Shown here: piece by piece, positions 47,684 through 48,223 of the stretch
Layout of the letters: each line of letters starts with the position of its first letter
Numbering within the stretch: position 1 is the first letter of the stretch
Sequence record: PP925837.1
Length of the DNA stretch: 48,223 bases
Direction: 5' to 3' (one strand)
From: Escherichia phage Turner
The notes under the pieces: generated by a model
Databases searched by the model: none
Told to the model about the DNA's origin: nothing
What the model saw: the letters and a program-made list of their open reading frames with translations, nothing else
Made by a program: the position numbers and the translations under genes

Positions 47684-48223
47684 TCATATCGCCCCCAGCA
47701 TGGTAGTAACCATCGCCATCAATGGACCAGCCAGATCTGGGTCCACACGAAACATCGATACAATACCTTCACTAATTTCCTTCAGTTTCTGGTGGCGTGG
47801 TGCGTTGAGAATGACAGCCTGTTTTGCCTCACTGAGTTCCTTTTCCATTTCAGCCAACCTGGCCATGAAGCTATCCTGCTCAACCAGGTAACCGCGATAT
47901 TCCAGCGGTAGTACCGCCAGAATTGCCGGGGTCAGTTCACGCACGTTATTTCGGTATTTTTCAGAATCGAATTTGTTATCGAGGAAGCGGAACAGCTTCT
48001 GGCGTGCACGGCTGACATCATCAGGGAAATCGATGGTGCCGCCGCCCTGCTCCCGATACTCATTCACAATGAGTGTGGCAACGACATCCTGATTATCTAC
48101 AGCCGACCAGGCGCGGACGGCATCACGGATTTTTTCGTGGCCTGGCACCTGTTTTGTTTGAGAACGATTTATCACCGCAGTCGGGCTAAATCCGCTAGTC
48201 TGTTGGTATGGAAGTGGTTGCAT
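47684..48223 (-). CDS. cII-position protein, YdaT-like (family recalled from memory); start codon is the last three bases of the window
   Basis: 179-aa ORF directly downstream of the cro-like gene across the window junction; reverse complement of window 1-13 supplies AAGGAG 6 nt upstream of this ATG. Confidence 0.7.
   Translation of the reverse strand: MQPLPYQQTSGFSPTAVINRSQTKQVPGHEKIRDAVRAWSAVDNQDVVATLIVNEYREQGGGTIDFPDDVSRARQKLFRFLDNKFDSEKYRNNVRELTPAILAVLPLEYRGYLVEQDSFMARLAEMEKELSEAKQAVILNAPRHQKLKEISEGIVSMFRVDPDLAGPLMAMVTTMLGAI

Follow-up and report, generated by a model that had tools for sequence, protein, structure and literature searches.

The 48,223-nucleotide (nt) stretch of Escherichia phage Turner considered here (sequence record PP925837.1; "the window" below) carries, in the position that belongs to cII in lambda, a gene for a 179-residue protein that is very probably a lysogeny-establishing regulator of the YdaT family, a CII-equivalent of the type found in phage phi80. 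Sequence, predicted structure and analogy with studied relatives all point this way. To judge by their conservation, the 5' codons of the gene likely also hold a leftward promoter comparable to PRE of lambda. More tentatively, an operator of the class II kind, centred at -41.5 and written into the codons of the N-terminal tail, may combine with the -10 of this PRE analogue, and with a second, perfect operator over the promoter of the ninB to Q region, into a two-site lysogeny circuit unlike that of the lambda promoters PRE, PI and PaQ.

The gene lies at the very end of the window, and its ribosome-binding site at the opposite end:

47684–48223, minus strand: gene for the 179-residue regulator, YdaT-family and phi80-CII-type (open reading frame list, PF06254, PHROG_163, AlphaFold2, Foldseek, identity to phi80 CII)
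7–12, minus strand: Shine-Dalgarno sequence AAGGAG, 6 nt upstream of the regulator ATG across the junction (junction reconstruction, colinear with PP925829)

The ATG is the final triplet of the window (48221–48223 in the open reading frame list), and the sequence upstream of it was rebuilt by joining the window's end to its start. From cI to P, it can be aligned gaplessly with the linear record PP925829 (phage IdasGreatGrand), at 97.75% identity over 3473 bp, and the annotated order in that phage is CI-like repressor, "transcriptional repressor" (cro), "CII-like transcriptional activator" and O-like protein. Because of this colinearity, the window can be taken as a circular permutation and the regulator gene as intact. 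In the joined sequence the frame is closed by a stop 72 nt upstream of the ATG, and none of the codons between the two is ATG, GTG or TTG. An earlier note on this DNA had described a 179-residue open frame after the cro-like gene, at the cII position and at the window junction, and the open reading frame list and the rebuilt junction agree with it. It had also placed the protein across the junction; the cut falls between ribosome site and start codon, and only the ribosome site and the upstream spacer cross it, not the coding sequence. The size given there, about twice that of lambda cII, is nearly right: lambda CII has 97 residues, and the regulator is about 1.85 times as long. A 163-residue product may also be made from codon 17 as an alternative start, as most homologues have ATG, GTG, TTG or CTG here and the PHROG profile starts at this codon; among the candidate starts in the window, only ATG1 has a Shine-Dalgarno sequence.

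What kind of protein is this? The earlier note had likened it to the Rac YdaT-type proteins, a likeness that it staked on similarity to the YdaT family being found by search. In a hidden Markov model search against that family and against cII, the protein matches the Pfam family YdaT_toxin (PF06254, formerly DUF1019) with 103.5 bits against a cutoff of 21 (E = 8.5e-30), residues 67–154 aligning with positions 1–90 of the 92 in the profile. This is the only significant family in the Pfam scan, in which lambda-type CII families are missing even at E <= 1. The likeness is further borne out by 35% identity to YdaT of Rac (K-12 b1358) over 96 residues in BLASTP (E = 3e-12; no similarity is detectable past residue 122) and by fold matches. 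PHROG gives a full-length match to phrog_163, "CII-like transcriptional activator" (E = 3.9e-67), and an NCBIfam search gave nothing meaningful. When solved structures were searched by sequence, just 8bt1 (YdaT of CP-933P) and its close homologue 3c4r were found, both weakly (E about 0.002–0.004). The recognition helix, SRARQKLFRFLD, is closely alike that of CP-933P YdaT, ARNTQKIFRWLD, and R79 aligns with the conserved arginine in this helix (QKLFRFLD in the regulator vs QKIFRWLD in CP-933P). This residue is conserved in 100% of 56 homologous genes and at 90% or more in a 62-sequence alignment. In the studied proteins, DNA binding depends on the corresponding arginine, Arg60 in CP-933P and R57 in Rac (PMC9986795, PMC11879457).

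The predicted structure agrees. (A single-sequence AlphaFold2 model, with a predicted local distance difference test score (pLDDT) of 39, was unusable, and the 62-sequence alignment was required.) The model from 62 homologues has a mean pLDDT of 76.7. Residues 1–25 are predicted to be disordered, and residues 28–110 to form a five-helix helix-turn-helix (HTH) domain (pLDDT about 90) with helices at 28–43, 45–58, 70–82, 88–104 and 107–110. This matches the all-helical, POU-like HTH of the YdaT family, including the long loop between helices 2 and 3, here 11 residues at 59–69 (family range 9–23). Three further helices are predicted in the C-terminal part, at 119–138, 143–160 and 162–178. In a Foldseek search of the PDB, chains of 3c4r or 8bt1 fill the first six places (probability 1.0, target-normalised template modelling score 0.64–0.68, about 118 aligned columns), and the next match has E = 0.47. 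CP-933P YdaT is a tetramer of subunits with one POU-like HTH domain and one long helix each, the long helices forming a four-helix bundle (PMC9986795). The regulator shares with it the Pfam family, the recognition helix with its arginine, the long loop and the predicted fold; on the other hand, identity is only about 26%, and the regulator has an additional 25-residue disordered N-terminal tail and about 40 additional C-terminal residues, making up two predicted helices.

The closest named relative is phi80 CII (NC_021190, 35671–36213, 180 residues), with 66% identity and 81% positives over 180 columns (E = 1e-92). All 179 residues are covered, including the N-terminal tail and a C-terminal region with the motif HQKLKE-SEG, which places the regulator in the phi80-type subfamily. 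The next relatives are the proteins of mEp237 (67%), CobraSix (73%), and HK225 and HK639 (52%); Rac-type proteins are much farther away. Together with KO-TP1, phi80 and these phages form the closest known group. In phi80, too, the gene stands between a cro-like gene and O/P-like genes, and a slot for an oop/M3-like RNA comes after it. Upstream, however, phi80 has a cro and a cI of another immunity type, the two Cro proteins sharing just a weak 26-residue match, and codons 2–7 differ (ACCA in the window vs ATCA in most relatives). Near-identical copies (94–99%) annotated as cII are present in at least 15 coliphage records (tblastn against phage genomes), and the gene is found in 2293 of 5426 complete E. 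coli genomes (42%), with at least 95% identity in nearly all; there, the RefSeq label is "toxin YdaT domain-containing protein". In a large protein database, 705 relatives are found at E <= 0.001, for the most part of 179–180 residues, from Klebsiella, Citrobacter, Enterobacter, Salmonella and others, and among the 120 relatives listed, most have this length and all have PF06254. GenBank records have given the phi80 homologue the name cII since X13065, which dates from the 1980s. That CP-933P YdaT is homologous to phi80 CII was noted earlier by Jurenas et al. (PMC8630535). The gene is thus already known, as an annotated member of a well-populated family that has been characterised structurally and functionally, and the gene call by itself is of little consequence.

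Where would such a regulator bind? YdaT proteins bind (T/A)TGATT-N6-AATCAA and activate a reverse, PRE-like promoter (PMC8630535, PMC9986795, PMC11879457). CP-933P YdaT footprints on TTGATT-N6-AATCAA at the ydaS/ydaT junction (PMC9986795) and makes a silent reverse promoter more active (PMC8630535); the Rac protein binds ATGATT-CATGAA-AATCAA, which covers the start codon of its own gene, and, via that box, activates leftward transcription towards racR up to 29-fold (PMC11879457). When the published TTGATT-N6-AATCAA box was sought with at most one mismatch in 61 homologous loci, where it would be expected at the cro/ydaT junction, essentially none was found. Upstream of the start codon, these loci, which come from bacterial genomes, have mosaic sequence without such a box, and the cro-ydaT spacer of the window has just a three-mismatch copy of the published 18-mer. 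A box was instead located by aligning the homologous genes themselves (56 homologues with 51 unique 5' regions), as was a hexamer upstream of it in the gene:

48158–48175, minus strand: candidate YdaT box GTGATAAATCGTTCTCAA (GTGATA-AATCGT-TCTCAA), codons 17–22 (conservation in 56 homologous genes)
48196–48201, plus strand: candidate -10 element TAGTCT of a leftward, activator-dependent, PRE-like promoter (TAnnnT kept in 51 of 51)

TGAT at nt 50–53 of the gene and TC at nt 63–64 are invariant in all sequences, and an A follows at nt 65 in 45 of the 51. The six bases between the half-sites vary, and so do the residues encoded (M, L or V at codon 17; N, A, S, F, Y or D at codon 21). The pattern in the family is nTGAT(A/T)-N6-nnTCAn, a palindrome TGAT-N8-nTCA, and its core matches the footprinted boxes of Rac and CP-933P (PMC11879457, PMC9986795), the core common to CP-933P and the regulator being TGAT-N8-ATCA. 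The 5' inverted repeat that characterises the family would thus be present in the window as the degenerate copy GTGATA-N6-TCTCAA, within codons 17–22, whereas in CP-933P-type phages the box overlaps the start codon. The same in-gene box, there reading ATGATAAACCGCGCTCAA, lies at 35719 in phi80.

The hexamer TAnnnT is read on the reverse strand at nt 28–23 in all 51 unique sequences. It consists of three invariant positions, the third of codon 9 (nt 27, under six amino acids), the first of codon 10 and the second of codon 8. Just 6 of 177 codons have an invariant third position; three of these are trivial (Met1, Trp39 and Met175), and the other three, codons 9, 17 and 21, correspond to the "TA" of the -10, the TGAT half-site and the TCA half-site, each over four to six different amino acids. 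The gap of 21 nt between hexamer and box varies freely in sequence and never in length, and there are no insertions or deletions among the elements. With TAnnnT as the -10, this spacing puts the centre of the palindrome at -41.5, the usual site for an activator that replaces a -35 element, and thus fits a PRE-like promoter. Its transcript is predicted to start near 48207–48209 and to run across the junction, antisense to cro, into cI. At the mirror-image spacing from the box there is no rightward promoter, nt 87–92 reading CGAAAA. In Rac, a reverse-strand TATGAT (L002 2152–2157, at the end of ydaS) lies at the identical spacing from the footprinted box, again with the centre at -41.5, and in a CP-933P-type phage TAGTTT lies one nt further out.

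Raw per-codon synonymous identity is confounded by relatedness, and it was corrected by pairwise expectation and by using distant pairs only; the 5' signal stayed. After correction, synonymous conservation is highest in codons 1–17, at 1.4–1.46 times expectation, and in distant pairs it is 0.69–0.70 in these codons vs about 0.38 elsewhere. Recent recombination at the mosaic boundary was ruled out as the source of this conservation, because the invariant positions interleave with freely varying ones. Among the in-gene boxes, recognition-helix residue 74 (R or M) covaries with position 6 of the box (A or T); this is not relied on, as it comes from essentially one clade and is contradicted by the half-sites of the nin site described next.

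A second candidate site is found far from the first, in front of the nin genes:

42201–42229, minus strand: second candidate operator with promoter TTGATT-17-CATAAT, directed rightward towards orf33, ninB, ninE, rusA and Q

Here the perfect box TTGATT-ATCGCA-AATCAA at 42212–42229 makes up the -35 hexamer and part of the spacer of the promoter. It lies 5 nt past the stop codon of an unrelated open frame of 118 residues and is the sole exact match in the window to the published 18-mer, the footprinted CP-933P pattern, of which about zero copies are expected by chance. With a half-site matrix built from the in-gene boxes only, the nin site ranks first in the window, in the whole phi80 genome (score 18.0) and in the HK639 fragment. 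An alignment of seven phages (the window, HK639, phi80, HK225, CobraSix, KO-TP1 and phage 82) has TTTGAT, ATCAA and CATAAT invariant; the inner spacer differs, and similarity stops immediately upstream of the palindrome. In phi80 the palindrome is at the same place upstream of ninB, with TTGATA as half-site vs TTGATT in the window, and the record of phage 82 (X92588) lists the promoter as a putative one. A phi80-type CII is encoded in every complete phage genome that matches across or up to the nin palindrome. From its place over -35 and spacer, the site might serve to repress Q-proximal transcription, the part played in lambda by PaQ; this is the most speculative step, and it is put forward with some doubt.

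The leader between this promoter and ninB (42048–42200, minus strand) has three hairpins that are kept in phi80, HK639, CobraSix and phage 82. One of them varies on both sides of the stem (GCGC-AAACG-GGGA-CGTTT-GCGC in the window vs ATTTAAG-GGGA-CTTAAAT in the others); it is annotated as a "possible regulator-binding site" in phage 82 and as "IR4" in phi80. Rfam has no family for the leader. One idea is that it may be a cis-acting RNA, by analogy with HK639, which uses antitermination by put-type RNA.

How would the two sites work together? By homology with Rac and CP-933P, the rightward early transcript made after infection would produce the Cro-like protein and then the regulator, which would assemble through its C-terminal helices and bind inverted repeats of the TGAT-N8-ATCA type by its HTH domains. 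From the comparison of homologous genes, it would bind at codons 17–22, centred 41.5 bp upstream of the point where a weak leftward promoter, with its -10 in codons 8–10, starts transcription, and bound there would switch on a transcript antisense through cro into cI, the role of PRE in lambda. More speculatively, it would also occupy the second, perfect repeat over the promoter of ninB to Q, and binding there would most simply damp production of the late activator Q.

Two other identities have been given to proteins of this kind, and neither fits well. The names "Bacterial toxin ydaT" and "Bacterial toxin YdaS" in Pfam, like the RefSeq label, imply that the regulator is the toxin of a YdaS/YdaT toxin-antitoxin pair, acting through growth arrest or abortive infection and not through gene regulation, and over-expression of Rac YdaT does lead to filamentation and cell death (PMC11879457). 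However, the toxin-antitoxin assignment was predicted by algorithm and has not been upheld by experiment (PMC5917428, PMC8630535, PMC9986795). The toxicity of Rac YdaT has been put down to its activating the transcription of rcsA (PMC11879457), the CP-933P protein lacks toxicity (PMC8630535), and experiments and genetic context identify YdaS and YdaT as counterparts to Cro and CII (PMC5917428, PMC8630535). With a fold predicted to be an HTH DNA-binding domain, and a gene that plaque-forming phages have in the place of cII and that bears this label in them, a toxin is very improbable, and this explanation, largely refuted by the homologue literature and the fold, was rejected. Could the regulator then be a lengthened, diverged homologue of lambda CII itself? 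There is a functional analogy: both genes follow cro and have an antisense small-RNA unit beside their 3' end (in the window a candidate one), and in lambda, PRE is a leftward, activator-dependent promoter with the CII site within the first codons of cII. The shared map position, the "cII" label in phage records and a short similarity between recognition helices (R57/W58 in Rac YdaT vs R43/W44 in lambda CII; PMC11879457) are in keeping with common descent. The fold and oligomer symmetry of lambda CII are nevertheless unrelated to those of YdaT, and it recognises a direct repeat, TTGC-N6-TTGC, whereas YdaT proteins recognise inverted repeats (PMC9986795). No lambda CII chain is found among the PDB sequence matches at E <= 1 or the top 50 fold matches listed, and with the Pfam scan equally negative for its family, homology to lambda CII is barely credible and was likewise rejected.

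A more serious question is whether the regulator is mainly a repressor or roadblock that closes down the ninB-Q promoter and, from its site within its own gene, impedes the rightward transcription of O and P, the 5' conservation then serving translation or mRNA stability. A box over the -35 and spacer of the nin promoter is in a typical repressor position, the in-gene box lies 49–66 nt into a transcribed gene, the candidate -10 in the window is weak, and the structural paper on CP-933P repeatedly terms YdaT a repressor (PMC9986795). Against this, both studied homologues activate a reverse promoter in vivo, up to 29-fold (PMC8630535, PMC11879457), and an invariant reverse-strand TAnnnT, fixed at 21 nt from the box and under variable amino acids, is hard to explain by the needs of mRNA or translation. 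A regulator that is mainly a repressor is thus improbable, and in any case the two roles are mutually compatible. Several other points weigh against an activator with two sites. In the window, the in-gene box departs from TTGATT-N6-AATCAA at 4 of the 12 specified positions, TAGTCT is a weak -10, and the single-site scores with the half-site matrix (15.1–15.3) are within the range of shuffled sequences (maximum 17.3). The same matrix finds nothing notable near int (5212–6375) or in Q (40174–40572), that is, no sites like those of PI or PaQ. Conservation of the 5' nucleotides could come in part from constraints on translation initiation or mRNA structure, and the co-occurrence of the nin site with this type of CII could reflect the shared ancestry of one phage group. 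In Rac, the promoter to which the authors ascribed activation was predicted by computer and lies some 190 bp away from the box, not next to it (PMC11879457), and no published DNA-binding or promoter data for the phi80-type subfamily were found in the literature. The C-terminal third of the regulator has three predicted helices and the invariant HQKLKE-SEG motif, as against a single long helix in solved YdaT; the monomer model does have a helix at 119–138, but this is followed by helices 143–160 and 162–178, which the solved structures lack. Assembly into a tetramer through the C-terminal helices may be expected by analogy with CP-933P.

The genes around the regulator bear on what type of switch it belongs to:

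70–300, minus strand: Cro-like gene of the YdaS family, 76 residues, directly upstream of the regulator (PF15943, 62.2 bits against a cutoff of 30; P22_Cro weak)
405–1094, plus strand: CI-like repressor, 229 residues, HTH_3 and Peptidase_S24 (LexA-type cleavage domain), divergent from cro (Pfam)
46668–47597, minus strand: lambda-type replication gene O (PF04492, 115 bits; probable start at 47597, GGAGG-N5-ATG, MANTAEIFNF...)
45970–46671, minus strand: lambda-type replication gene P (PF06992, 208 bits)
47572–47680, plus strand: candidate oop/M3-like antisense RNA unit, between the regulator stop and the probable O start (promoter scan and fold)

With the junction verified, the order is cI, cro-like gene, regulator, O and P, the placement expected for the family. 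The earlier note saw here a Rac-type early-right switch attached to lambda-type O and P. The YdaS/Cro-like neighbour on which this was based stands, given the PF15943 match and 30% identity to Rac YdaS over 63 residues in BLASTP, and so does the presence of YdaS/YdaT together with O and P; the regulator shares with Rac its YdaS-family cro partner as well as the similarity to YdaT, which falls in the DNA-binding domain. The Rac switch itself does not stand. The repressor, annotated as CI-like in PP925829, has no similarity to RacR in BLASTP (E = 2.3), so that the immunity is not of the Rac type, and the nearest relative of the regulator is phi80 CII. Rac has the 158-residue RacR, without a cleavage domain, and the replication genes ydaU and ydaV, where the window has a CI-like protein with Peptidase_S24 and lambda-type O and P. 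The arrangement combines a phi80-type cII with lambda-type O and P, preceded by an immunity region that has a type of its own; the leftward transcript presumably targets cI. This mosaic is not unusual, since the same combination of phi80-type CII with O/P-like genes is found in phi80 and at least 15 sequenced coliphages.

Inverted repeats of AACAAC/GTTGTT recur at 301–404, between cI and cro (e.g., ATGGTTGTTTTTAGTCAACAACCAT at about 339–363), and at 1370–1420, after cI; presumably they serve this immunity type as its OR and OL operators. The cro-ydaT spacer (3–39, plus strand) holds TTGAnT hexamers in one orientation: TTGACT at 3–8, TTGAAT at 17–22, TTGACT at 22–27 and TTGATT at 34–39. The last is a perfect half-site and the other three are one-mismatch copies, resembling either YdaT half-sites or -35 hexamers; they are left uninterpreted because the spacer is unrelated in other family members. 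Beside them, a consensus boxA-like element, CGCTCTTTAACAA (45–57, minus strand), suggests a nutR site.

On the other side of the regulator, the open frame of O reaches 47687 and overlaps the regulator's stop codon. In phi80, the O-like gene begins after the M3 RNA with the homologous sequence MSNT; with the corresponding start at 47597, the annotation of a 339-residue O (start at 47687) would be about 30 codons too long. The interval 47598–47683 plausibly encodes, on the plus strand, an oop/M3-like RNA. Its candidate promoter TTGAAT-17-CATAAT (47572–47600, plus strand) has a -10 that overlaps the O start codon, as in phi80, and is followed at about 47634–47668 by a hairpin of -26.2 kcal/mol (z = -2.4) with a poor U-tract. 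Both phi80 and HK639 have an M3 RNA, the oop homologue, annotated in the same slot, and Rfam has no family for this region.

Elsewhere, the window carries cargo like that of the K-12 prophage DLP12, including an EmrE-type small multidrug transporter (45271–45657, minus strand), a YbcK-like large serine recombinase of 508 residues (43488–45014, minus strand) and, just beyond Q, a general porin (38887–39984, plus strand). A fragment at 43053–43376 has a P22 antirepressor C-terminal domain. Beyond the integrase (5212–6375) are an omptin-family outer-membrane protease (6860–7813) and an alpha/beta hydrolase (8000–9484), and a methyltransferase lies at 10029–10697. A Pin-type DNA invertase (11795–12385) lies beside a tail-fibre assembly gene, and the region of that gene is overlapped by a full-length match to Rfam IS009 (12517–12715, minus strand, 226.7 bits), the only above-threshold Rfam match in the window.

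What does a phi80-type CII with operators of this kind mean for the family? The name "toxin" in Pfam is historical, the protein being very probably a transcription factor, and in RefSeq and Pfam alike the label misleads for the lysis-lysogeny regulator of a very common type of prophage. If the adjacent-promoter geometry is true in Rac as well, the published "activation from 190 bp away" could be understood more simply. If the in-gene promoter is real, part of the conservation of the disordered N-terminal tail would be at the level of the DNA. The predicted sites could be destroyed by synonymous changes that leave the protein unaltered, and the three invariant third-codon positions, together with the ninB operator, would thus allow cheap and precise experiments on the commonest kind of CII that is not of the lambda type.

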